Positions 5,165 through 45,947 of a stretch of DNA of 64,000 nt are shown here, one piece after another (within the stretch, counting starts at the first letter, position 1; each line of letters starts with the position of its first letter). A program made the translations under genes and the position numbers. Source of the stretch: an uncultured Candidatus Saccharibacteria bacterium (GTDB lineage: Bacteria > Patescibacteriota > Doudnabacteria > UBA920); the NCBI GenBank assembly GCA_964561085.1, contig CAZLNP010000001.1, forward strand, positions 75,335-139,334, in the 5' to 3' direction. Below the pieces are notes generated by a model that worked only from the letters and a program-made list of their open reading frames with translations, had not been told where the DNA came from and made no database searches.

Positions 5165-5188
5165 GAAGAAACAATACAAATTTAAAAA

Positions 5189-5227
5189 GACCCTTTACCC
5201 TCTTTAGGGGGCCACGGGTCTTTTTTT
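5189..5227. terminator. bidirectional intrinsic terminator (efp / convergent redox operon)
   Basis: AGACCC...GGGTCT hairpin with inner AGGG/CCCT, followed by TTTTTTT. Confidence 0.6.
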
Positions 5228-5236
5228 GAAATTTAT

Positions 5237-5860
5237 TTATACAATGATTTTTCCCATATCTTTTGCAGCATCCCAAAGTGCTGCTTTCATCTTATTCTTT
5301 ATTATTGCCATCACTTGTTTTGGGCTAGTGTTGTCCATAATCATGGAAGTTGTTGCTCTAACAATATATTCTGATTCACTTTCTCCATGCACCGGTGAGG
5401 AGTAATTTATATCTTTAGCCAAATGGCTGTCTTCCAATAGCCACTCGCCCGGATAAGTTTCTCCCAATTTTGAAACTGTAGAGATGGTCCCACTCTCAGC
5501 ACCTAAGAATTTTTTAAGCTCTGCTACGAATTGAACTAATTCTTCGCTACGTCCACTTATAGACCAATCATTTTCTTGCATAGTATTTACGGCTTTTTTG
5601 AAATCATTGTCCAGGCTCGCAGCCATCGATTCCAACTTTTCTATCTCCTTTATGAGTTCTGGGTTGCGAAGCGCCTCATAAACATTTTCAGATCTTTCGA
5701 ATTCTCTATGAATCTGTTCCTTCTGAGCAACATCTGGCACTACCTTGATAGAACCGTCATGAGAAATATCTACCTCAGCTCCCTCGTCAACTAACTTTCG
5801 ATCAGAATTAAAGCGCTCAGCATTCATCATTTTAGCTTCCTGATCACTTAAATTTTCCAT
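5237..5860 (-). CDS. hypothetical protein (207 aa), last gene of csoR-trxB-gdhA-trxB operon
   Basis: ORF from track; 37-nt gap to upstream gene, same strand. Confidence 0.5.
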   Translation of the reverse strand: MENLSDQEAKMMNAERFNSDRKLVDEGAEVDISHDGSIKVVPDVAQKEQIHREFERSENVYEALRNPELIKEIEKLESMAASLDNDFKKAVNTMQENDWSISGRSEELVQFVAELKKFLGAESGTISTVSKLGETYPGEWLLEDSHLAKDINYSSPVHGESESEYIVRATTSMIMDNTSPKQVMAIIKNKMKAALWDAAKDMGKIIV

Positions 5861-5897
5861 ATGTTTTGATTAATTTATCTAATACGATTATAGCAAA

Positions 5898-6392
5898 CTA
5901 CGCGGCCTTGCGGAATTCTGTTTCTTCTTCTGAATCGTCTGGCTTTGGTTTTTCAGGTCCTGGCCAAACACTTTCTGGAACTTTTATTACGTTGTCATTT
6001 CCTGTTTGATGCGTATACCCATCTTTCTCCATAGACTCTCGGCGAGATGTGATATTGGCAATCCGCACAATACGAGCTAGCTTATGGATTTTATCTTCCA
6101 AATCAGTAATCTTTTTTACTTCCTGCCCCTGATTCGATATCCTGTCTTTGATTTTTGCCCAAAAGGACATAAAAGCCTGCTGTTCTTCTTCCTTTAATGC
6201 ATTAAGCTCCTCTACTGCTTGATCCAACGAGTCGTAGCCTGCGTCCTTTAGAATTTCTAAAGATTTTTGATGTGGACTTAGTTTATCAAAAATATGTTTA
6301 ATAACTTTCTCCGCTGGTTGATCGTGGCTTTCAAACTCCACTACGTTATCTTTTACCTCGCCTGGACTAAACTCTGATCTTTCACCATGCAT
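5898..6392 (-). CDS. hypothetical acidic protein (164 aa), coiled-coil-like
   Basis: ORF from track; 15-nt gap from the trxB-like gene, same strand. Confidence 0.5.
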   Translation of the reverse strand: MHGERSEFSPGEVKDNVVEFESHDQPAEKVIKHIFDKLSPHQKSLEILKDAGYDSLDQAVEELNALKEEEQQAFMSFWAKIKDRISNQGQEVKKITDLEDKIHKLARIVRIANITSRRESMEKDGYTHQTGNDNVIKVPESVWPGPEKPKPDDSEEETEFRKAA

Positions 6393-6407
6393 ATTTTTAA
6401 AATTTAA

Positions 6408-7322
6408 TTATTTTAAATTAGTAAAATAGTTGCTGACAGCCATGGCGGCCTTAGCACCTTCACCAGCTGCGATAATAATCTGTTCACCCCAGGCATCATT
6501 AATGTCTCCAGCTGCAAATATTCCCGGTACGCTGGTTTGCAAATCTTTATCTACCTTAATTTCATTCTTCTCGTTCTTCTCAAGAATATCCGCAAAAGAA
6601 ATACTTGGCTCGTAACCAATCTCTATAAAGACTCCACTGACGGGCAGCTCTTGGTCTGGCTTACCTATTTGCTGAACAGTCATCGCTTCGACATGAGTAG
6701 TGCCAGAAATTTTAGTTATTTGTGCTTGATGATACGCTTTGACATTAGGCAAGCTCATGATTTTATCTCTTACAATACCTTCACCAGTATAATCGTCAGT
6801 CATGTTAATTACATATACTTGACGAGCCACCCTTGATAGTGCGCAAATCGCATCCATTGCAGAGTTACCACCGCCTACCACAGCTACATCTTTACCTTTA
6901 TACAAAGGTCCATCGCAAGTAGCACAAATTGCTACACCTTTTCCATAAAACTCCTCTTCACCAGGAACACCTAAATGACGAGGGTTCTTTCCAGAAGCAA
7001 CTATTACAGATTTAGCATAGTAAACATTCCCTTGTTTATCTTCCAAAACAAAGCTGGTGATATTTTTGTCTAGTTTTACTATCTCTACATCAAGCTTTAC
7101 TTCAAGATCTTCTTTTAAGGCAGCCATGTGTTCCTGGAAACGCAAAGTTAAATCTGCGCCAGAGATCATGCTGAAACCGGTGTAGTTTTCTACATCGGCT
7201 GACCATATCATTTGCCCACCAACAGCCTTAGCAAGCACTAATGTTTTTAGTTTACGGCGAGCTGTATAGATCGCAGCAGTCATTCCTGCTGGTCCTGCGC
7301 CGATTATGATGCAGTCGTACAT
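6408..7322 (-). CDS. Thioredoxin-reductase-like flavoprotein (CATC redox-active disulfide) lacking the canonical NADPH HRRD motif
   Basis: GAGPAG FAD motif, CATCDG active site, GGGNSAMDA second dinucleotide motif; where TrxR has HRRDxxR this protein reads VINMTDDYTGE. Confidence 0.8.
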   Translation of the reverse strand: MYDCIIIGAGPAGMTAAIYTARRKLKTLVLAKAVGGQMIWSADVENYTGFSMISGADLTLRFQEHMAALKEDLEVKLDVEIVKLDKNITSFVLEDKQGNVYYAKSVIVASGKNPRHLGVPGEEEFYGKGVAICATCDGPLYKGKDVAVVGGGNSAMDAICALSRVARQVYVINMTDDYTGEGIVRDKIMSLPNVKAYHQAQITKISGTTHVEAMTVQQIGKPDQELPVSGVFIEIGYEPSISFADILEKNEKNEIKVDKDLQTSVPGIFAAGDINDAWGEQIIIAAGEGAKAAMAVSNYFTNLK

Positions 7323-7331
7323 ATGACTGTA

Positions 7332-8573
7332 TTATACCATCTTCTCTGCGATGCGCTCTAACGCCACAATGTATGCTGCTGTTCTCATTGTAGTATTATG
7401 CTTTTCTTGAGCAGCGCGGACTGCGGCAAAGGCTGCGACCATGTGTTCATCAAGTTTCTTGAGAACATCTTCCTTAGTCCATGTTTCGTTATTCTGGTTC
7501 TGATACCACTCGAAGTAACTTACACATACTCCTCCGCTGTTTGCGAGGATATCTGGCACTACAGTCACACCGTTTTGCGCAAAGATGGCATCTGCTTCTG
7601 GAGTAGTTGGACCATTAGCCATTTCTAGAATAAATTTTGCTTTGACTTTTGCAGCGTTGTCGCCAGTTAAAACGTTTTCAAGTGCTGCTGGCACTAGAAC
7701 ATCGACATCAAGTTCAAGCAATTCTTCATTAGTAATTTCAATGGTACCCTCTAGCCCGCGCAAAGCCTTATTCGCCGCTTTATGCGCTTCTGCCGCAGCT
7801 AAATCTATTCCTTCAGCGTTAAAAATCCCGCCCTTGCTGTCTGACAAAGCAACCACTTTAAAACCATGCTCTTTTACGTACTCTGCTAAGTAAGTCGCTA
7901 CGTTACCGAAACCTTGAATTGCAATAGTCTTTCGGCCTTCTGTTGCAGAAGCGTCTGGCACAAGTCCAGCTGCCAAAGCTTCGCGAAGTACATAGCCACC
8001 ACCAAAACCAGTTGCTTCGGTGCGACCCTGGCTGCCACCATTCTCTACTGACTTACCAGTAATTACACCAGGAGCTTGCGTGCCGGTTTGTTTTTCAAAT
8101 TCATCACGCATCCACGCCATGATCTGTCCGTTAGTATTTACATCAGGCGCAGGCACATCTACTAAGGGTCCAAAGTTGCGGAACATTTGCTTCATGTAAC
8201 CGCGAGATAAACGCTCAAGTTCCCCTTCGCTCAACTCTTTCGGATTCACAATTATTCCACCCTTACCTCCCCCAAAAGGAACGTTAACTACGGCGTTTTT
8301 GAAAGTCATCCAAAAACTTAACGCGCGAACTTCATCTAAGTTTACATCTTGATGATATCTAATTCCGCCTTTGTATGGACCGCGTGCGTTGTTGTGCTGT
8401 GATCGAAACCCAGAAAAAATCTTTTGAGTTCCGTCGTCCATTTGTACTGGAATTGAAACTTCGATGTAACGATCTGGATTCTTTAATTGGTCTACGATTT
8501 TGGCGTCTGCGTTGCTAACTTGTGCCGCAGCATCTAGTTGGGCTTTTGCTGATTCGAAAGGATTGTTTGTCAT
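7332..8573 (-). CDS. gdhA: Glutamate dehydrogenase (NAD(P)+)
   Basis: KGGIRYH...VNVPFGGGKGG...GFGNVA motifs diagnostic for Glu/Leu/Phe/Val dehydrogenase family, 413 aa. Confidence 0.95.
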   Translation of the reverse strand: MTNNPFESAKAQLDAAAQVSNADAKIVDQLKNPDRYIEVSIPVQMDDGTQKIFSGFRSQHNNARGPYKGGIRYHQDVNLDEVRALSFWMTFKNAVVNVPFGGGKGGIIVNPKELSEGELERLSRGYMKQMFRNFGPLVDVPAPDVNTNGQIMAWMRDEFEKQTGTQAPGVITGKSVENGGSQGRTEATGFGGGYVLREALAAGLVPDASATEGRKTIAIQGFGNVATYLAEYVKEHGFKVVALSDSKGGIFNAEGIDLAAAEAHKAANKALRGLEGTIEITNEELLELDVDVLVPAALENVLTGDNAAKVKAKFILEMANGPTTPEADAIFAQNGVTVVPDILANSGGVCVSYFEWYQNQNNETWTKEDVLKKLDEHMVAAFAAVRAAQEKHNTTMRTAAYIVALERIAEKMV

Positions 8574-8602
8574 GGTTCTAAACTTAATTTTTATTCTTCT
8601 GT

Positions 8603-9544
8603 TTACTCTTCTAACGCTTCAAGGTATTTCTCTACGTCTAGTGCAGCTTTACAACCTTCACCGGCAGCAGTAATTGCTTGGCGATAGCGGTGGTCATGAA
8701 CGTCACCAGCAACAAACACACCCGGAATGTTTGTCATGGTAAATTCTTTTGGTTCAATGTAGCCTTTTTCGTTTGTATCGATGCCAGCTTCACGGAATAT
8801 CTTAGTAGCGGGGGTGTGTCCAATCGCTGCGAAGTATCCTTGTGCTTTAATTTCTCTCTCTTCGCCGGTTGCGTTATCTTTTACGCGAATGCCCTCTACG
8901 CTGTTTTCACCCAACACTTCTGTGACAGTAACGTTAGTGACAAACTCAATTTTCGGATTATCTTGCGCTCGCTTAAGCATGATGCGAGAAGCTTTAAATT
9001 CATCACGACGATGAACAACAGTCACGTGAGAAGCGAACTTGGTCAGGAAATTTGCTTCTTCCATGGCGCTATCTCCGCCGCCAATTACCACTACATCTTT
9101 TTCTTTAAAGAAAAAACCATCACAAGTAGCACAAGCACTTACACCTTTACCACGTAGCTTTTGCTCACTTTCTAGGTTAAGCCAATTTGCTTCTGCGCCA
9201 GTGGCGATAATAACAGCCTTCGCCTTATACTCAGTATTAGCTGTTTTAAGCACGAAGGGGTTAGATTTAAAGTCTACCGACAGTACGTCTTCGTAAATCA
9301 TTTTAGTGCCGAAACGTTCCACTTGCTTAGTCATATTAGCCATGAGTTCTGGCCCTTGAATACCTTCTGGAAAGCCTGGGAAATTTTCTACTTCTGTTGT
9401 TAACATGAGCTGACCTCCAGGAGCGATGCCTGCCATTACTGTTGGCTCTAGTTCTGCTCTAGCAGCATACAAAGCTGCAGTTAGTCCCGCAGGTCCCGCA
9501 CCGATGATTATTAGTTTGTGAGTTTCATTTGATGTTGTTTCCAT
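8603..9544 (-). CDS. trxB: Thioredoxin-disulfide reductase (canonical NADPH type)
   Basis: GAGPAG, CATCDG, GGGDSAMEEA and HRRDEFKASRIM (NADPH 2'-phosphate binding) motifs. Confidence 0.9.
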   Translation of the reverse strand: METTSNETHKLIIIGAGPAGLTAALYAARAELEPTVMAGIAPGGQLMLTTEVENFPGFPEGIQGPELMANMTKQVERFGTKMIYEDVLSVDFKSNPFVLKTANTEYKAKAVIIATGAEANWLNLESEQKLRGKGVSACATCDGFFFKEKDVVVIGGGDSAMEEANFLTKFASHVTVVHRRDEFKASRIMLKRAQDNPKIEFVTNVTVTEVLGENSVEGIRVKDNATGEEREIKAQGYFAAIGHTPATKIFREAGIDTNEKGYIEPKEFTMTNIPGVFVAGDVHDHRYRQAITAAGEGCKAALDVEKYLEALEE

Positions 9545-9565
9545 AACTGTCCTTTCTAGTTTGTA

Positions 9566-9856
9566 CTAATTCTTTTTAGAGTAAATTTTGATGAGTTCTT
9601 CGACCGCAGCTTTACGCTTAGCAGGGTTAGTGCTTTTTGCATCTATGACACATTCGCCTAGGTATCCTTCTAGGATCAAATTGTTCACCTTCTTCATGGC
9701 TTCAATTACGGCGTGGCTTTGATTGATGATATCCATGCAGTAGGCGTCGGTTTCTACCATTGTGGCAACTGCCCGAACATGACCTTCTATGTAACGGAGT
9801 CGTTTTACTAAGTCAGCCTGGTTAGCGGCCGCAACACTGTTAAGTTTTTTTGACAT
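9566..9856 (-). CDS. CsoR/RcnR/FrmR-family (DUF156) metal- or thiol-sensing transcriptional repressor; start re-set to MSKKL (track ORF extends further upstream across the operator)
   Basis: LVKRLRYIEGHVRAV...YCMD...LGEC matches the CsoR-family helix bundle; fingerprint positions appear to be Cys-Tyr-Cys. Confidence 0.75.
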   Translation of the reverse strand: MSKKLNSVAAANQADLVKRLRYIEGHVRAVATMVETDAYCMDIINQSHAVIEAMKKVNNLILEGYLGECVIDAKSTNPAKRKAAVEELIKIYSKKN

Positions 9857-9874
9857 AATTTCTATATTTACTAG

Positions 9875-9891
9875 ACCCCCCTGTGGGGGGT
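9875..9891 (-). promoter_or_regulatory. candidate CsoR-family operator: ACCCCCC-TGT-GGGGGGT inverted repeat overlapping its own promoter
   Basis: Perfect 7-bp GC arms with 3-bp spacer, 19-35 nt upstream of the MSKKL start codon. On the coding strand it sits just downstream of TTGACT-17nt-TATACT (approx 9900-9928). Resembles known CsoR operators, which are G/C-tract palindromes. Confidence 0.5.
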
Positions 9892-9995
9892 ATATATCTA
9901 GTATATGCTCCCCCACTTTTTAAGTCAAACTTGAGAGGTGTTCATATGCATGGTATGATGTGCATGACAATCGCATTCTAAAGCCACTCTGGCTC

Positions 9996-15917: not shown

Positions 15918-15992
15918 GGCGCTATCGTCTAACGGTTAGGACAGACGGTTTTCATCCGTCAAATCGGAGTTCGATTCTCCGTAGCGCTACCA
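15918..15992 (+). tRNA. tRNA-Glu (anticodon TTC), CCA encoded
   Basis: 7-bp acceptor GGCGCTA/TAGCGCT (G1-U72), D-arm GTCT AACGGTTAGG AC, anticodon stem GACGG/CCGTC with loop TTTTCAT, T-arm CGGAG TTCGATT CTCCG, discriminator A then CCA. Confidence 0.85.
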
Positions 15993-17452
15993 CCTAACAT
16001 TTTATCCCTTTTGGAGATAGGCAAACATTCTTTTTTCCAATTGGTTATTACATTTTTATCACTTAGAGAAAAGTTTTCCACTAAACTTTTCACAAGACGG
16101 CGTCGGGATTCTTCCGACGCTGTTTTGTATGCAATGGTTGGGCTTTTAAGCAGTTTTCCAAGGTTTTCCATTTTCAGCATCGATTCAGCATTTTCAGACT
16201 GTACGCCATTTAATTGTTCAGTATATTCAATTTTTTTGTTTAACAATTTTGACTTCATGGATTGATAATCTTCGCTACTGATACTTTTGTCCAAAAATCG
16301 ATCCATTATATCGTCAAGCTGTTTCTCTACTTTATGAATTTCAAATATCCATTTAGCAGTAAGCTCCCCCTGTTGGCTTTTCAAGTCTTCCCTTAACTGT
16401 CCGATTGCTTTCAAAAACATTACTACTTCTTCATCCGAAAATTCAATACCCTTTAGTTCTTCAAAAAACTGTTCATCTACAAGTTCTTCTAACAAATTAT
16501 ATTTATGTTCTGCGCTGCGGCAGTTGTAGTACTTATAATAAACATTTCTATGTACTTTAGTTGAAGAAATACATCTTAATGGTCTATCGCAGGTAGGACA
16601 ATTAAGCATTCCTTGAAATACATACAACCGTTTTCTTTTATGCTTAAAGCTCTTCTTGTCTAACACTTCCTGAACTTTATCAAATAAAGATTTAGTAATG
16701 ATCGGTTGATGAATACCTTTGAAATCTCCTTTATTAGTCCACCGTACGATTCCGTAGTAAAATGGGTTTCTAAACATTTTATAAAGTGTTTTGTGTTTTA
16801 CCAAACCACCGTCATTATTCCTTAACCCCATTTCTTTTAACTTATCCTGTAAAGGTATAATCCCATACAAACCAGTAGCAAACATTTCGAATGCTTGTTT
16901 TACAAGTCTACTTTGAACAGGGTCAGGTTCTTTGAAACCTTTTTTAGAATCTAAATAACCGATTGGAGCTCTTGATGGAAAAAGTCCTTGTTCTAACATT
17001 CTATCAAATGCTGTATTTACTTTAACCCGCAATCTTTGGCTATAGACTGTTGCCTGCCCCCATAAATCATAAATTCTTGAAAGGTCATCGTCTGATTGAG
17101 TTGTGAGATTTTCAGCAGCAAAGTGAAAGTGATAGCCTTGTTCAATAAGTTTGTAAAAATTTCCAATATCTTGGTAATTCCTTGACGATCTGTCCACGGT
17201 AGCAAAGCAAATTCCAGCTAACTTTTCTTTCTTTAATCTTTGTATTAACATGCCAAACAACTTTCTCCCAGGACGAAAGGAAGATTCTACCCCCTCAAAG
17301 AAGTCAACTATTTCTAACCCTCTCTGTTTTGCATATAGTTCTATTTGTTTCTTTTGAATTTCTGGACTCCAGTTTGTTGCTTGGTCTTTTGAACTGACCC
17401 GTACATAAGCTAAGAATTTATTATTAGATAATTTTTTCATGTTGTCCTTCAT
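15959..17452 (-). CDS. Large serine recombinase (resolvase catalytic domain + recombinase domain + zinc ribbon + coiled coil)
   Basis: AYVRVSSKDQ catalytic serine motif near N-terminus, CPTCDRPLRC...C zinc ribbon, 497 aa; C-terminal codons overlap the tRNA-Glu 3' half. Confidence 0.9.
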   Translation of the reverse strand: MKDNMKKLSNNKFLAYVRVSSKDQATNWSPEIQKKQIELYAKQRGLEIVDFFEGVESSFRPGRKLFGMLIQRLKKEKLAGICFATVDRSSRNYQDIGNFYKLIEQGYHFHFAAENLTTQSDDDLSRIYDLWGQATVYSQRLRVKVNTAFDRMLEQGLFPSRAPIGYLDSKKGFKEPDPVQSRLVKQAFEMFATGLYGIIPLQDKLKEMGLRNNDGGLVKHKTLYKMFRNPFYYGIVRWTNKGDFKGIHQPIITKSLFDKVQEVLDKKSFKHKRKRLYVFQGMLNCPTCDRPLRCISSTKVHRNVYYKYYNCRSAEHKYNLLEELVDEQFFEELKGIEFSDEEVVMFLKAIGQLREDLKSQQGELTAKWIFEIHKVEKQLDDIMDRFLDKSISSEDYQSMKSKLLNKKIEYTEQLNGVQSENAESMLKMENLGKLLKSPTIAYKTASEESRRRLVKSLVENFSLSDKNVITNWKKECLPISKRDKMLGGSATENRTPI

Positions 17453-18176
17453 ATATGTTTCCTTTATATGATATTTTATTTTTATAAATATCGTTAGTTA
17501 ATATTTTTTTAATTGTTGACGGCCACCACCTGTTACCTCCACGCTTTGTTGGTATGCTTCGCAAATTTAGGTATGCAGCAATTTTAGTAAGATTCATTCT
17601 CTTATAGCGTTTTAAGTGAAAGATTTTTCTTACAATATCTGCCTCTGCTTGATTTGTTATCAACTGTCCGTCTTTGCAGTCGTATCCGTAAATTTCTCCT
17701 CCATGCCACCTCCCCTTAGCTGCAGCCGAAGCGCGTCCGTTGGTCAGTCGCATTGTAATCATGGCTCTTTCGAATTCACTAAAAGCACCTATAATTTGCC
17801 TAAACAGTTTACGAGTTGCATCATTACTACCTAAGTCTGGTTCAGTTAGTGAGATTAGCTGTTTATTTAGTTTTATAAACTCTCTTATTAGTCCTTCCTG
17901 GATATAGAGGTCACGGGCTAATCTCGTCAGTGACAAAATTACAACTGCTTTTACTTCGCTATTAACTTCTAAATACTGCATCATTTGTGCCAGCGCTGGC
18001 CTATGTTCCAAACCGCCACTTACACCATCGTCTTTAAACCATTCAACTATTTCTATACCGTTCTTTTTTGCATAATTTGATATTGATTCAACTTGTAATT
18101 CAATGTTGTCATTTTCCGCTTGTAGTGCAGTTGATACTCTGCAATATGCTATCGCTTGCATTTTCGTTCCTTCCAT
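17424..18176 (-). CDS. Serine recombinase, short form (resolvase domain + partial recombinase domain, no zinc ribbon)
   Basis: AIAYCRVSTALQ catalytic motif; 250 aa; 3' end overlaps the start of the 497-aa recombinase by 29 nt. Confidence 0.8.
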   Translation of the reverse strand: MEGTKMQAIAYCRVSTALQAENDNIELQVESISNYAKKNGIEIVEWFKDDGVSGGLEHRPALAQMMQYLEVNSEVKAVVILSLTRLARDLYIQEGLIREFIKLNKQLISLTEPDLGSNDATRKLFRQIIGAFSEFERAMITMRLTNGRASAAAKGRWHGGEIYGYDCKDGQLITNQAEADIVRKIFHLKRYKRMNLTKIAAYLNLRSIPTKRGGNRWWPSTIKKILTNDIYKNKISYKGNIYEGQHEKII

Positions 18177-21501: not shown

Positions 21502-21793
21502 ATATATATTGTAGTATTAGTTAACTTCTCTAGACGTGATTTCTTACATTCGGTTAGTACCGAGTGTCCAAGACCCTAAAGCAAGTGACTATAATATAAC
21601 AAAATAACCCCTCTCAGAATAGGCATATAAATACCTATAACCAATACAAAAAGTGTTCTCTGAGGCCATTCTAGGACTTCATGGAATGCTTCAAAGTGCC
21701 TTGTTTATAGTACTTTTAGCTGTAATGGTATATAATTAACCTACAATTCTGCCTAAACCTTCAAGTAATTGAAGGCATGGCGCAATACTAAAC

Positions 21794-21922
21794 CCACTAC
21801 TACATGAAGGCGGCTATCCGTCTTGCTTACCATGTAGTAGTGGTTATCCTTCCGAAAGGTTGGATAAGGCAAGCGGGTAGCCCCTTTTGTTTTTTAAAAT
21901 AATTAAATCCACTACTACAATG
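21794..21922 (+). repeat. iteron-like element: three copies of CCACTACTACA(A)TG (two forming a 13-bp inverted repeat) plus TTATCC/GGATAA hairpin and T-tract
   Basis: Copies at 21794-21806, 21831-21843 (inverted) and 21909-21922 (overlapping the start codon of the downstream ORF). Confidence 0.5.
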
Positions 21923-33581: not shown

Positions 33582-34760
33582 CTAAGATTTGCGAGCGTAA
33601 ATATACGCGGCAAGCAGCGTAGCCACTGGCACTGCCAATATTAAAGTGATGCTTCCCACCAAAGCTCGCACTAATTCTTCAGCCATGAACTCACTATTAA
33701 GTAGAATCCAAAGCGGCTGAGACTTTTGTAAGGTCAGCAGTAAAAACAGTGGCAAGGCTGCGCCGGCATAGACTAAAATTAATGTGTTTATTAGAGAAGC
33801 AATGTGTTCTCTACCAATCGACAACCCTTTTTGATACAAAGCTTTCACGGACAAAGTTTGATCAGTTTTGTGCAACTCTTCTACGGCGGCAGTTTGAGCC
33901 GTTGTGACATCATCCAGAACTCCTAGAACAGAAATCATAATACCAGCAAGTAAAATCCCTTGAAGATTAATACTACCTAAGAAACCTGTCTCTAGAATGA
34001 AGGCATCGCTTTGACCGAACCCAAATATACTAGAAATTTGTACGAACGCGTAAGCAATGGCAGCCGTAATAGCTAAAGAGATAATCGTACTGACAGCAGA
34101 AATTTGAATGCGCTTATTGAACCCATGAGAGATGAACATGCTTACTAACACAATTGCACCTGCTCCAACCAGTGCCACCAAGAACGGATCTTTCCCCGCT
34201 AAAATTTGTGGGGCGATGAAGAAAAGAAGTATACATCCAGTTATTCCTAATCCTATTAGTGAAGTTAAACCACGGCGGCGCCCAACAATTAATGCCAAAG
34301 CTAAAAATACACCAACAACAATGTATAGCCCCGGAAGTCTGTACCGATCTATAATCACATATTCTTCAGTCACTTCCGCGGAAATCGATCCAAGCACGAC
34401 TTTATCGCCGACTTCATATTGCACACTACGAGCTGCATCTAGAATTTGGGTGTTATCTACTAAAACTTCTTCACCTGCATCTTCAGCGTCATCAGTCAGC
34501 CTTACTTTTAGTTGCTGAGTTATGTATTGAGTTCGCTGAACATCATCAACTTGCTCAAAAATAACTTCAATAACTTCCCCTTTAGCATAGCCCTTAAATG
34601 AGGTTGTATCTTGAGAAGCGTTCTCTTGGCTAAAAGATGAGTTACTACTTGGCAATTGCAAAACATAGACCCCAGCCGCGGCAATAATGATAGCAAATAC
34701 AATTAGAAGATGAATTAATCGAAATTGTTTAAACATATTTATAGTGTACATTTTCCGCAA
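33582..34760 (-). CDS. YibE/F-family polytopic membrane protein
   Basis: About 10 predicted TM helices after a periplasmic N-domain; resembles YibE/F family by overall pattern; overlaps the Fur-family gene by 22 nt. Confidence 0.5.
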   Translation of the reverse strand: MRKMYTINMFKQFRLIHLLIVFAIIIAAAGVYVLQLPSSNSSFSQENASQDTTSFKGYAKGEVIEVIFEQVDDVQRTQYITQQLKVRLTDDAEDAGEEVLVDNTQILDAARSVQYEVGDKVVLGSISAEVTEEYVIIDRYRLPGLYIVVGVFLALALIVGRRRGLTSLIGLGITGCILLFFIAPQILAGKDPFLVALVGAGAIVLVSMFISHGFNKRIQISAVSTIISLAITAAIAYAFVQISSIFGFGQSDAFILETGFLGSINLQGILLAGIMISVLGVLDDVTTAQTAAVEELHKTDQTLSVKALYQKGLSIGREHIASLINTLILVYAGAALPLFLLLTLQKSQPLWILLNSEFMAEELVRALVGSITLILAVPVATLLAAYIYARKS

Positions 34761-35170
34761 AGTCCGAACAACTCAAAAGAATGTCCAGTCACTTGCTTAA
34801 AATTTACAGAGTTTTTAATAGCTTTGCTTATGATGGAATCAAGATCACAATTCTCTATGTCTTCCACTTTCCCGCACTGACTACAAATAAAGTGATGATG
34901 ATCCTCTAAACCCGCAAACTCATAATGACCATGTCCATGCTGAAAATTAATTTGTTTTATCAAACCCGCCGCTAAAAACTCTTTGATAGAGCGGTAGACA
35001 GTCGCCATATCTGGAGCAGGTTCAGTGAATTTTCTATAAATCCCTTCTACAGACAGCGGCTTCTTACTCTTTGCCAATATAGACAAAAGCTGGACTTTTG
35101 ATTGAGTCGCCTTGAAACCTGCCTTCCTTAGCAAATCAGCGTATTGATTGTCGATTCTAGGTGTTTTCAT
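34739..35170 (-). CDS. Fur-family metalloregulator (likely Zur given divergent ZIP transporter)
   Basis: wHTH N-domain, HHHFICSQCGKV...C..C metal-site motifs. Confidence 0.8.
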   Translation of the reverse strand: MKTPRIDNQYADLLRKAGFKATQSKVQLLSILAKSKKPLSVEGIYRKFTEPAPDMATVYRSIKEFLAAGLIKQINFQHGHGHYEFAGLEDHHHFICSQCGKVEDIENCDLDSIISKAIKNSVNFKQVTGHSFELFGLCGKCTL

Positions 35171-43769: not shown

Positions 43770-44252
43770 CTATTTACTATGTTTCTCGGAGTAATCCACA
43801 ATCCCCTCTAGGACCTTAATGTACCCAATTGCATCTGGTAACGAAATTCCTGCGGATATCTTCTCCATCTCCTTAGTTAAATTCGCTTCCATTTGTTTTA
43901 CGAAAGCTTTCCCCTCTTTGCTTAAATGAATTATTTTTGCGCGCTTGTCTGTAGGGTCTGGAGATACTATGACAAAGCCTCTTTTCTTAAGTTTATTGAT
44001 AACTACTGTAATAAAAGGCTGTTCCACTCCCATTATTTCAGAAAGGAGTAAAGCACGTAATCCAGCAGAGTGATCGTTAATTGTTCCTAGTGCTACCCAA
44101 TCGGAATTAGATATATCTAAGCGGTTTAGCAAATCAGAAGTAGTTCCCATCAAAGCTTTATAGGCTTTTGTCTGTAAAAGACCAATGTGGTAAGTATTTG
44201 TAATTCCGGATTTATTCTTTTGGCTCTTCAAAAATGACAATATAGTTTTCAT
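43770..44252 (-). CDS. MarR-family transcriptional regulator
   Basis: Winged HTH ...NSDWVALGTINDHSAGLRALLLSEIMGVEQPFITVVINKLKKRGFV... Confidence 0.8.
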   Translation of the reverse strand: MKTILSFLKSQKNKSGITNTYHIGLLQTKAYKALMGTTSDLLNRLDISNSDWVALGTINDHSAGLRALLLSEIMGVEQPFITVVINKLKKRGFVIVSPDPTDKRAKIIHLSKEGKAFVKQMEANLTKEMEKISAGISLPDAIGYIKVLEGIVDYSEKHSK

Positions 44253-44260
44253 TAGTTTAC

Positions 44261-44302
44261 ATTCTTAAGAATCTATTATATAATACTTAAGCTACTTAAG
44301 TA
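44261..44302. promoter_or_regulatory. palindromes ATTCTTAAGAAT and TACTTAAG-CTA-CTTAAGTA (candidate MarR operator, site 2) in the divergent MarR/DipZ-like intergenic region
   Basis: Same TACTTAAG-N3-CTTAAGTA architecture as site 1. Confidence 0.4.
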
Positions 44303-44324
44303 AAGTTATTAATTACTAATTTTT

Positions 44325-45947
44325 ATGATCGAACTTTTATTTGCTGTCATAGCAGGCGTTCTGACTGTAGGGGCTCCATGTATTTTACCCATGCTTCCTA
44401 TTCTACTAGGAACAACTGTTGGCCAACAAAGTAAGTGGCGCCCTGCGTTCATTGCCTTAGGGTTTATCATTGCTTTCTCTATTGTAGCATTTTTATTCGG
44501 ATTATTTACTAATATTTTAGGTCTATCCCCTCAGGTCCTACGTACGGTCGCCGTTGTAATGCTGGCCATTTTCGGGGTATTCATGGTTTGGCCTACTCCT
44601 TTTGAAAAACTTACTACTTACTTAACCGGTTTCATAAATGGAGCAAATCGCCTAAGTCAGAAAGCTGGTAACGGAAACCTTGGCGCTTTGGTTCTCGGTC
44701 TGATGCTTGGAGTAATTTGGACCCCTTGTGCAGGGCCAGTGCTTGGTAGCATCTTAACATTAATAGCAACAAAACAAGACATAGTAAAAGCTGGACTTCT
44801 TTTGCTTGCTTACGCAATCGGCGCCGGTATTCCCCTTCTACTTGTTGGATACGGTGGCCAGTACGTCACTACTAAAGTTCGCTTCTTTGCTCAATATGCT
44901 CGCCGTATTCAGCAAGGGTTTGGTATTTTAATTCTACTTTTAGCTGGAGCGATATACTTCCAATACGATACAGTTATTCAAGCAAAGATTTTGCAGTATG
45001 TTCCAGTTCCAAATATAGAATTACCTGGCAGCGAAAAAGAACAAAGAGAAAGTGGTATTGGGCAGTATGGCGCCGCGCCTGAATTTACAGGAATAACAAA
45101 GTGGTTAAACGGTGATGAACAAAAGATTGCTGATTTAAAGGGTAAAGTAGTCTTAATAGATTTCTGGACTTACTCTTGTATTAACTGTGTCCGAACTTTA
45201 CCAAATGTTACTGCATGGTACGACAAATATAAGAATGACGGGCTAGTAGTAATCGGCGTTCATACTCCTGAATTTGCTTTTGAAAGGGAGACCAGTAATG
45301 TTGAGAGGGCAATTGATCGTTTTAACATTAACTACCCTGTCGCCCAAGATAATGACTATGCCACATGGAATGCTTACTCAAACAATGCTTGGCCAGCAAG
45401 CTACCTAATAGATAAAGAAGGTAATATTGTTTACAAGCATTTTGGTGAAGGTAACTATGATGTGACGGAGAACAATATCCGTAAATTGCTTGGCCTTGAA
45501 GGCGGTACTGAAACGAAAGTTGAACTTCCCAACTTTAGAGCCATTCAAACACCAGAAATTTACTTTGGATTAAGTCGCCAAGAATACATTGCTAACAACG
45601 AACGCATTAGTGGAGACGCCCAACAACTAGAGCTACCAGCTGAAATTCCAAGCAATCAATTCGCTGTATCAGGTAATTGGAAATTTAATGCTGAGTCAGC
45701 GAAGCTAGTTAGCGGTCCCGGCAAAATCAAACTGCAGTTCAATGCGAGTAAGGTTTACATGGTTGCCCAATCTGTGGCATCACCCGTAACTCTGCGTATT
45801 CTGGTAGACGAGCAGTTTGTAAAAGAAATTACTGTGTCTGGATCTGATATATACACCCTGTTCGAGTCCGAAGAATATAAAGATCGCACTCTGGAAATAG
45901 AAATCCCACCAAGTGATTTTGAAGCCTTTACGTTCACATTCGGATAA
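44325..45947 (+). CDS. DipZ-like thiol:disulfide interchange protein (CcdA/DsbD transmembrane domain fused to TlpA-like thioredoxin domain and C-terminal beta-rich domain)
   Basis: Paired Cys in TM region (GAPCILP, WTPCAGP), periplasmic thioredoxin fold with WTYSCINCVRTLP. Confidence 0.75.
   Translation: MIELLFAVIAGVLTVGAPCILPMLPILLGTTVGQQSKWRPAFIALGFIIAFSIVAFLFGLFTNILGLSPQVLRTVAVVMLAIFGVFMVWPTPFEKLTTYLTGFINGANRLSQKAGNGNLGALVLGLMLGVIWTPCAGPVLGSILTLIATKQDIVKAGLLLLAYAIGAGIPLLLVGYGGQYVTTKVRFFAQYARRIQQGFGILILLLAGAIYFQYDTVIQAKILQYVPVPNIELPGSEKEQRESGIGQYGAAPEFTGITKWLNGDEQKIADLKGKVVLIDFWTYSCINCVRTLPNVTAWYDKYKNDGLVVIGVHTPEFAFERETSNVERAIDRFNINYPVAQDNDYATWNAYSNNAWPASYLIDKEGNIVYKHFGEGNYDVTENNIRKLLGLEGGTETKVELPNFRAIQTPEIYFGLSRQEYIANNERISGDAQQLELPAEIPSNQFAVSGNWKFNAESAKLVSGPGKIKLQFNASKVYMVAQSVASPVTLRILVDEQFVKEITVSGSDIYTLFESEEYKDRTLEIEIPPSDFEAFTFTFG

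Follow-up and report, generated by a model that had tools for sequence, protein, structure and literature searches.

What does a repressor of the CsoR family sense when the operon that it heads encodes thioredoxin reductases and a glutamate dehydrogenase? The question is raised by a locus in a 64,000-nucleotide stretch (the window) of contig CAZLNP010000001.1, from an uncultured Candidatus Saccharibacteria bacterium placed among the Doudnabacteria of the Patescibacteriota, in which a small CsoR-family protein is followed by five genes in the same orientation. An initial annotation had taken this protein for a thiol-based rather than a copper-based switch. We find that its family membership, its sensing triad, the conservation of its operator, and its invariant linkage to trxB are established; regulator, operator, and operon appear to form one conserved unit. 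On balance, and with somewhat more confidence than doubt, we favor the view that it represses a thiol-redox and flavoenzyme module, that the repression is relieved by oxidation of Cys40 and Cys69' (the prime denoting the neighboring subunit), and that the induced thioredoxin system resets the sensor. The operon lies wholly on the minus strand of the window, as given by the open reading frame (ORF) listing, and comprises the following elements:

9928..9900, minus strand: sigma-70-type promoter, TTGACT-17-TATACT (promoter scan, 10 of 12 consensus matches)
9875..9891: predicted operator, the perfect palindrome ACCCCCCTGTGGGGGGT (ACCCCCC-N3-GGGGGGT), 8 nucleotides (nt) past the -10 hexamer and overlapping the expected transcription start
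9856..9566, minus strand: csoR-family repressor gene, 96 amino acids (aa), MSKKL start, PF02583
9544..8603, minus strand: trxB1, canonical NADPH thioredoxin-disulfide reductase (TIGR01292; CATC and HRRD motifs)
8573..7332, minus strand: gdh, hexameric-type glutamate dehydrogenase, with PF00208 (ELFV_dehydrog) and PF02812 (N-terminal domain)
7322..6408, minus strand: trxB2, 304-aa flavoprotein resembling TrxR and the C-terminal part of AhpF (CATC kept, HRRD lost)
6392..5898, minus strand: orphan ORF of 164 aa, acidic and fast-evolving (BLASTP matches to ORFs at the same position in relatives)
5860..5237, minus strand: orphan ORF of 207 aa, the final gene of the operon
about 5185..5227: bidirectional intrinsic terminator (A-run, GC stem, T-run) separating the last ORF from the convergent efp (sequence and folding)

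The repressor matches PF02583 over profile positions 2 to 76 of 78 (82.9 bits, E = 2e-23), which bears out its initial assignment to the CsoR family. The gene order proposed at that stage (trxB, gdhA, a second TrxR-like gene, and two further ORFs, separated by 9 to 37 nt) agrees with the gene coordinates, the gaps between the six genes being, in order, 21, 29, 9, 15, and 37 nt. The bidirectional terminator likewise holds up, with a folding energy of -24 kcal/mol (z = -4.1), and a terminator scan found no convincing terminator inside the operon; the six genes would be expected to be co-transcribed. The product of trxB1 scores 414 bits against TIGR01292, above the equivalog cutoff of 343, and its translation holds both the CATC redox disulfide and the HRRD NADPH motif (in VHRRDEF). 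It thus combines the equivalog-level score and the HRRD motif of a thioredoxin reductase, both of which trxB2 lacks (296 bits against TIGR01292; 270 bits against the C-terminal half of AhpF). The gdh product scores 504 bits with the GdhA_Arch model, under that model's equivalog cutoff.

The evidence that ties the regulator to these genes begins with the operator. A genome scan at one genome per species yielded 38 related loci, which were compared over 12 kb each; some counts below are over 39 loci. The hexamer pair at 9928..9900 is the top promoter-like match of its region in the promoter scan, and an equivalent pair (TTGACA and TATAcT) lies upstream of the palindrome in nearly all related loci, with the palindrome 7 to 12 nt downstream of the -10 hexamer in most of them. 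Of 39 loci, 37 contain the frame A-C5-7-N2-4-G5-7-T exactly once within their 12 kb, as does L039, and two have it in degenerate form; its flanking A and T are invariant in 38 of 38 loci, in the midst of sequence that cannot be aligned. Because it is conserved in this way, once per locus and at the same place in 37 of the 39, the palindrome exceeds what chance would provide, and we regard it as a strong phylogenetic footprint. A search for further operator sites across the whole 64-kb window, tolerating as many as 3 mismatches or using relaxed C4+/G4+ patterns, gave none. The experimentally defined operators of Streptomyces lividans CsoR are G-tract pseudopalindromes such as ATATACCCCTNAGGGGTATAT, with two tetramers bound on each (PMC3902906), and the window operator is of the same kind, hence typical of the family; a G/C-tract pseudopalindrome at the promoter is what the CsoR/RcnR superfamily leads one to expect. 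The initial annotation had correctly placed both the promoter and, directly after its -10 hexamer, the operator ACCCCCC-TGT-GGGGGGT, but this GC palindrome is the standard CsoR operator type. The position of the operator over the start site fits repression and autoregulation.

Could the palindrome instead be a 5'-terminal RNA hairpin that stabilizes or attenuates the transcript, with the regulator acting elsewhere? It lies at or just past the predicted start and so would usually be transcribed, a C6-N3-G6 hairpin would be very stable, and the element was also scored as a terminator-like stem on the opposite strand. Against this, the stem sequence itself (C-run, G-run, and flanking A/T) is invariant rather than co-varying amid unalignable surroundings, fits the known CsoR recognition motif (PMC3902906), and always accompanies the regulator gene, once per locus. 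We accordingly give the hairpin explanation hardly any credence.

Several other features cluster around the promoter. A G-tract (GGGGGAG or AGGGGA) stands directly upstream of the -10 hexamer, at 9907-9913 of the window (minus strand), with equivalents in L002, L007, L008, L012, L016, and L018. With the C-run of the operator it forms an inverted repeat around the -10 hexamer, which the scan scored as a stem resembling a terminator (9885-9913, plus strand); the tract could be an extra half-site. The -35 hexamer often lies inside a palindrome of its own, TTGACA-N2-4-TGTCAA (L010-L013, L016, L017, L019, L021, L026, L027, L029, L030, L032, L036, and L038), which may be the site of a second regulator or a divergent promoter. 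Short tandem repeats, for example CCTAATT three times, TTTAAGA four times, and GATGAAAGAG three times, occur between operator and start codon in L020, L026, L030, L032, L034, and L035. In loci of the Doudnabacteria type (L017, L021, L026, L027, L029-L032, and L036), a conserved GC stem-loop followed by AGTATA, such as GCCGGTGGACCGGTCAGTATAG, is found about 10 nt upstream of the -35 hexamer and might act in regulation or as an upstream terminator.

What the protein might sense is first a matter of its sensing site. Alignment to solved structures with HMMER places Cys40 on Cys75 of the S. lividans and Cys36 of the Mycobacterium tuberculosis CsoR, Tyr65 on His100 and His61, and Cys69 on Cys104 and Cys65, respectively. 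The fingerprint is thus x-C-Y-C with 25/4 spacing, just as first read, with cysteines at the X and Z positions and tyrosine at Y. The x-C-H-C first-shell triad of a Cu(I) sensor is accordingly broken at Tyr65, while the second shell is intact: Tyr39 and Glu87 correspond to the allosteric residues Tyr35 and Glu81 of the M. tuberculosis protein, and both are invariant in the homologue alignment. The structures matched are 4ADZ, 2HH7, 4M1P, 5FMN, 7MQ1, 3AAI, and 5LCY. The best of these are Cu(I) CsoRs (E of 3e-11 to 6e-10), with CstR at 3e-6 and FrmR at 0.015 to 0.045; among solved and curated proteins together, the closest are Cu(I) CsoRs and RicR, and the C-H-C triad is present in 136 of the 150 nearest outside representatives. 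These relationships place the protein and its clade within the copper-sensor-like part of the superfamily and not near CstR or FrmR. The earlier view that it is closer to those two than to Cu(I) CsoR is therefore wrong by sequence.

Like CstR, the window protein has cysteines at X and Z and no His at Y, although about 30% of its clade has His there; where CstR has the Asn wedge at Y (cluster 10) and an exposed, highly nucleophilic N-terminal Cys, the clade has Tyr or His at Y and retains the caging Tyr39. The FrmR signature P-C-H-x (Pro2 and Cys35) is not seen, the MSKKL N terminus being variable across the clade and Y being occupied by Tyr, and the FrmR model gives 30 bits against a cutoff of 133. 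A FrmR-like reading was rejected in view of the absent Pro2 and the very weak similarity. Nor is there a conserved N-terminal His at W, as in the H-C-H-H or H-C-H-C patterns of RcnR and InrS, and the RcnR model yields 21.7 bits against a cutoff of 138.

Does the tyrosine then mark a non-metal sensor? A word-indexed search recovered 81 homologues, all from metagenomes or metagenome-assembled genomes (MAGs), those with a named source being labelled Patescibacteria or Doudnabacteria. In an exhaustive profile search over 1.84 billion representatives, only two clusters at 50% identity exceeded 130 bits, and the best match after them reached 96 bits. About 190 homologues form a tight clade confined to Patescibacteria (Saccharibacteria-labelled and Doudnabacteria MAGs), in all of which cysteines 40 and 69 are invariant. 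At window positions 26/39/40/65/69/87, 135 of them read H-Y-C-Y-C-E and 56 (about 30%) H-Y-C-H-C-E. The His subtype occupies the same syntenic slot in 11 of the 38 genome loci, and the second high-scoring cluster (P0083), too, has His at Y; its contigs carry, in this order, the same promoter, TATACCCCCCTATGGGGGGTTA, the regulator, TrxR, riboflavin kinase, and an EamA transporter. Operator and trxB operon are therefore identical in kind for both subtypes. The difference between them extends to three positions lining the site, which change in concert, (Tyr65, Glu68, Met41) in 104 sequences versus (His65, Val/Ile68, Leu41) in 35, with few intermediates; the sensing pocket was thus remodelled as a unit. 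A neighbor-joining tree over 84 columns recovers the clade as monophyletic against C-H-C outgroups and the two subtypes as not reciprocally monophyletic; it is too crude to count His-to-Tyr events. Outside the clade, an unrelated C-Y-C CsoR (P0178, HYLDDC) lies directly upstream of a copA-like gene for an HMA-HMA P-type ATPase:

L043, 3728-5421: C-Y-C CsoR of P0178, overlapping the start of the HMA-HMA P-type ATPase gene

Tyrosine as a reliable non-metal marker was hence rejected, the His subtype (P0083, L039) heading the same operon and P0178 adjoining a copA-like gene. As C-H-C can head a trxB operon and C-Y-C can adjoin a copA-like gene, the fingerprint alone cannot separate metal from non-metal sensing in either direction. 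The thiol-based switch of the initial annotation survives as the reading to which gene context most strongly points, and loses the support that it drew from a tyrosine replaced by His in 56 of about 190 clade members.

The gene context itself is consistent. The regulator is immediately followed by trxB in each of the 37 loci whose downstream sequence is long enough, and gdh is within the operon in 31 of 38, so that the coupling of glutamate dehydrogenase to two thioredoxin reductase-like genes, initially remarked upon as unusual, is no quirk of this genome. In more distant relatives, genes for riboflavin kinase (PF01687) and an EamA-family transporter (PF00892) intervene between trxB1 and gdh:

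L010, L012, L016-L020, L027-L030, L032, L034, L036, L037, and L039: riboflavin kinase/EamA between trxB1 and gdh

In L019 (2309-3779), riboflavin synthase and lumazine synthase are encoded in the operon. Such arrangements suggest joint regulation of flavin supply and of TrxR, itself a flavoenzyme. Neither the window operon nor any of the 39 related loci was found to contain copA, copZ, or another gene for metal efflux or a metal chaperone, so that the linkage characteristic of Cu(I) CsoRs is missing from both. Two large downstream ORFs (718 and 734 aa) in related loci were considered as CopA and rejected, as they have no P-type ATPase domains. Downstream of the nearest outgroup protein with a readable neighborhood (P0085, C-H-C) lie genes for an HMA protein and a P-type ATPase.

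These neighborhoods bear directly on the possibility that the protein senses a thiophilic metal of the Cu(I) type, in which case metal bound to Cys40/Cys69' (with His in the C-H-C subtype) would derepress thiol buffering, at a locus with no dedicated efflux pump. The nearest solved and curated relatives, the predominance of C-H-C among the nearest representatives, the retained Tyr39 and Glu87, the 56 clade members with the full C-H-C signature, and the C-Y-C protein preceding a P-type ATPase all speak for it. However, a metal transporter or chaperone is present in none of the 39 loci, yet does occur at the outgroup P0085, and the regulon is made up of redox and flavin genes. Moreover, loss of His at Y amounts to loss of an allosterically essential Cu ligand (PMC8643695), and the Tyr subtype is nonetheless in the majority and strongly constrained. 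We consider metal sensing unlikely, though it deserves attention.

A second candidate is a CstR-like sensor specific for persulfides or reactive sulfur, with the thioredoxin system induced as a depersulfidase. The x-C-x-C fingerprint is that of CstR clusters 3, 4, and 10, which detect RSSH by forming di-, tri-, and tetrasulfide links between Cys and Cys' (PMC8643695). Yet no locus contains a rhodanese, SQR, persulfide dioxygenase, CoA-persulfide reductase, or TauE gene, the neighborhood that a CstR would lead one to expect; Tyr or His stands in place of the cluster 10 Asn wedge, and similarity to CstR is far weaker than to CsoR. Such specificity seems to us improbable. More improbable still is that the effector is neither an oxidant nor a metal but a metabolite tied to the cofactors of the operon, reporting flavin or NAD(P)H status. 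The riboflavin kinase, EamA transporter, riboflavin and lumazine synthases, and a protein consisting only of the FAD domain in the operons of relatives could be cited for this, but binding of such ligands is not known for any member of the CsoR family, and the presence of two invariant cysteines at its canonical sensing site speaks for cysteine chemistry.

Taking these findings together, we propose a thiol-redox rather than a copper role, because of the gene context (no cop genes, always trxB, often riboflavin kinase and EamA) and not because of the tyrosine. The Tyr and His forms look like positional orthologues with the same operator and regulon, and the allosteric response of M. tuberculosis CsoR to Cu(I) depends on His61 (PMC8643695); the simplest mechanism that both forms could share is one using the two invariant cysteines only. 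A precedent is offered by CstR, in which the CsoR scaffold operates through Cys-Cys' cross-links and which reacts with H2O2 in vitro (PMC8643695, PMC11672702). In the proposed scheme, a repressor tetramer on the A-C6-N3-G6-T operator would cover the transcription start of its own operon, resulting in autoregulation, and would keep the thiol-redox and flavoenzyme module off. In the window this module would consist of the NADPH thioredoxin reductase, glutamate dehydrogenase as the likely supplier of NAD(P)H, and the AhpF-like second reductase, with riboflavin kinase and the EamA transporter added in relatives. Peroxide, disulfide, or electrophile stress, the most likely signal, would convert the intersubunit Cys40/Cys69' pair into a disulfide or sulfur-bridged cross-link, whereupon the DNA would be released, and the induced thioredoxin system would re-reduce the sensor in a negative feedback. 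Repression and the feedback loop, like the signal, are what we infer from these arrangements.

Several observations weigh against this proposal. In Cu(I) sensors, a Tyr preceding the first Cys and a bulky aromatic residue at Y are reported to cage that Cys and to lower its reactivity (PMC8643695), and the clade keeps these Cu(I)-sensor features, namely, Tyr39 and an aromatic residue at Y, along with Glu87 (the equivalent of M. tuberculosis Glu81). Some 30% of the clade cannot be told apart from Cu(I) sensors by the residues at the known determinant positions, and one unrelated C-Y-C CsoR (P0178) is linked to a copA-like gene. The (Y65, E68, M41) and (H65, V/I68, L41) subtypes could sense different things. 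No gene for a thioredoxin (CxPC) or a peroxiredoxin was found in the operon or in the 12-kb neighborhoods of the window and the 38 loci, and the signal would be named from gene context alone.

Elsewhere in the window, at 43770-45947, a MarR-family gene adjoins one for a 540-aa fusion of a DsbD/CcdA transmembrane domain with Redoxin/AhpC-TSA and Thioredoxin_10 domains, which is a likely membrane acceptor of thioredoxin-derived electrons. A Fur-family regulator (PF01475) is encoded at 34739-35170 (minus strand); it could be a PerR-type peroxide sensor, in which case the CsoR-like protein might not be alone in sensing oxidants.

The remaining members of the module differ in their conservation. 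TrxR2, the product of trxB2, belongs to a large Patescibacteria family whose length is nearly always exactly 304 aa. Its CATC disulfide is retained and its HRRD reads NMTDD in the window protein; across 111 family members, CATCD is conserved and N-[IMV]-[NT]-[DE]-[DE] stands in place of HRRD, so that TrxR2 is probably not NADPH-dependent. Relatives annotated by JGI are termed "AhpF / NADH-dependent peroxiredoxin subunit F", and the N-terminal AhpF domains are absent. About 20 loci have the full-length 304-aa form, and 8 have a remnant of 170 to 180 aa in its place:

L017, 10498-11028: mini TrxR2
L035, 6287-6817: mini TrxR2
L027, 9171-9695: mini TrxR2
L038, 8809-9321: mini TrxR2
L026, L028, L032, and L034: mini TrxR2 likewise

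In alignment, these have precisely lost the whole NAD(P)H domain, including CxxC, leaving the FAD-binding domain alone. Profile searches gave neither of the two orphan ORFs (6392..5898 and 5860..5237) a Pfam or NCBIfam match. The 164-aa ORF matches ORFs in the corresponding position of L001, L006, and L008 by BLASTP, and shares with the ORFs following trxB2 in the closest relatives an N-terminal NV[IV]EF/FP motif and a C-terminal ...(K)AA end, the latter resembling an ssrA-type degron. These ORFs are as follows:

L001, 9402-9797: orphan ORF after trxB2
L004, 11024-11368: orphan ORF after trxB2
L005, 5233-5670: orphan ORF after trxB2
L006, 9451-9888: orphan ORF after trxB2
L008, 7216-7608: orphan ORF after trxB2

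No counterpart of the 207-aa ORF was found in the related loci, where efp comes right after the ORF resembling the 164-aa one. Two features of the window lie apart from this system. One is a match to LOOT RNA (RF03000) at 21750-21882 on the plus strand (50.3 bits against a gathering score of 46.4). The other, at 15918-18176, is a tRNA gene (15918-15989) overlapping the end of the first of two successive serine-recombinase-like ORFs (N-termini YxRVSxxxQ); this region may be the edge of an integrated element.

In full-text literature searches, neither this clade nor a CsoR-family protein controlling trxB was found described, and nothing relevant came up on CsoR-family regulators in Patescibacteria. 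A sequence-similarity-network study of 2021 lists several uncharacterized CsoR-family clusters (PMC8643695), and a 2024 review of metal and redox sensing in bacteria states that a CsoR-family sensor specific for H2O2 has yet to be characterized, a gap that limits the understanding of how the scaffold tells oxidants, persulfides, and Cu(I) apart (PMC11672702). In the locus described here, the kinds of repressor and operator are ordinary; what is new is the regulon, the restriction to one lineage, and the His/Tyr dimorphism. The clade, whose link to trxB is invariant, whose operator is well defined, and whose otherwise near-identical proteins fall naturally into C-Y-C and C-H-C subtypes, is a candidate H2O2-type CsoR sensor. 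It also illustrates that the W-X-Y-Z fingerprint alone mispredicts function, a full Cu(I) signature heading a trxB operon and C-Y-C a copA-like one. If our reading is true, the His/Tyr subtypes (with Val/Glu and Leu/Met) would amount to a ready-made experiment on the retuning of the CsoR scaffold from Cu(I) to an oxidant. Patescibacteria have very few regulators, and the clade may be their main transcriptional control of thiol-redox defense and flavin supply. More tentatively, as a possibility that we find attractive but would not yet bet on, it might be a dedicated sensor of peroxide or disulfide stress, the first of its kind in the CsoR family, and a thioredoxin-resettable Cys40-Cys69' switch acting as local master regulator of the module that supplies thioredoxin, NAD(P)H, and flavin in ultra-small, host-dependent bacteria.

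Among known systems, the clade is most like the Cu(I) CsoRs (M. tuberculosis, S. lividans, Bacillus subtilis, and RicR), its closest sequence relatives in the PF02583 fold family. It shares with them the Cys ligands at X and Z with 25/4 spacing, the equivalents of Tyr35 and Glu81, and a G-tract pseudopalindromic operator beside the promoter of a probably autoregulated gene. It differs from them in the replacement of the His Cu ligand by Tyr in the window protein and about 70% of the clade, in a regulon of trxB, gdh, and flavin genes without copA/copZ neighbors, in its longer G-tracts (6+6 versus about 4+4), and in the RLXR DNA-binding motif, which reads RLRY. The CstRs of Staphylococcus aureus, Enterococcus faecalis, and Streptococcus pneumoniae share the formal x-C-x-C fingerprint, and their non-metal sensing by intersubunit Cys-Cys' cross-linking is the very chemistry that we propose here. 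Unlike them, the clade has Tyr or His at the Asn55 wedge position, keeps the "caging" Tyr before the first Cys, and includes no sulfur-oxidation or sulfurtransferase genes in its regulon; the sequence similarity is also much weaker (E of 3e-6). The likeness to the formaldehyde sensor FrmR and the Ni/Co sensors RcnR and InrS goes no further than superfamily membership. The FrmR group shows the weakest similarity of all (E of 0.015 to 0.045 to FrmR structures), Ser2 taking the place of the Pro2 of the methylene bridge at a variable N terminus, and the N-terminal His and the His residues at Y and Z of RcnR/InrS are absent from the window protein. In other bacteria, thiol-oxidation regulators of trxB include OxyR, Spx, and RsrA/SigR. 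Their folds and mechanisms are unrelated, these being activators or an anti-sigma factor as against a CsoR-type repressor, and the parallel is one of functional analogy only: in the logic that we propose, as in theirs, a cysteine-based sensor would induce thioredoxin reductase and would in turn be reset by the thioredoxin system.

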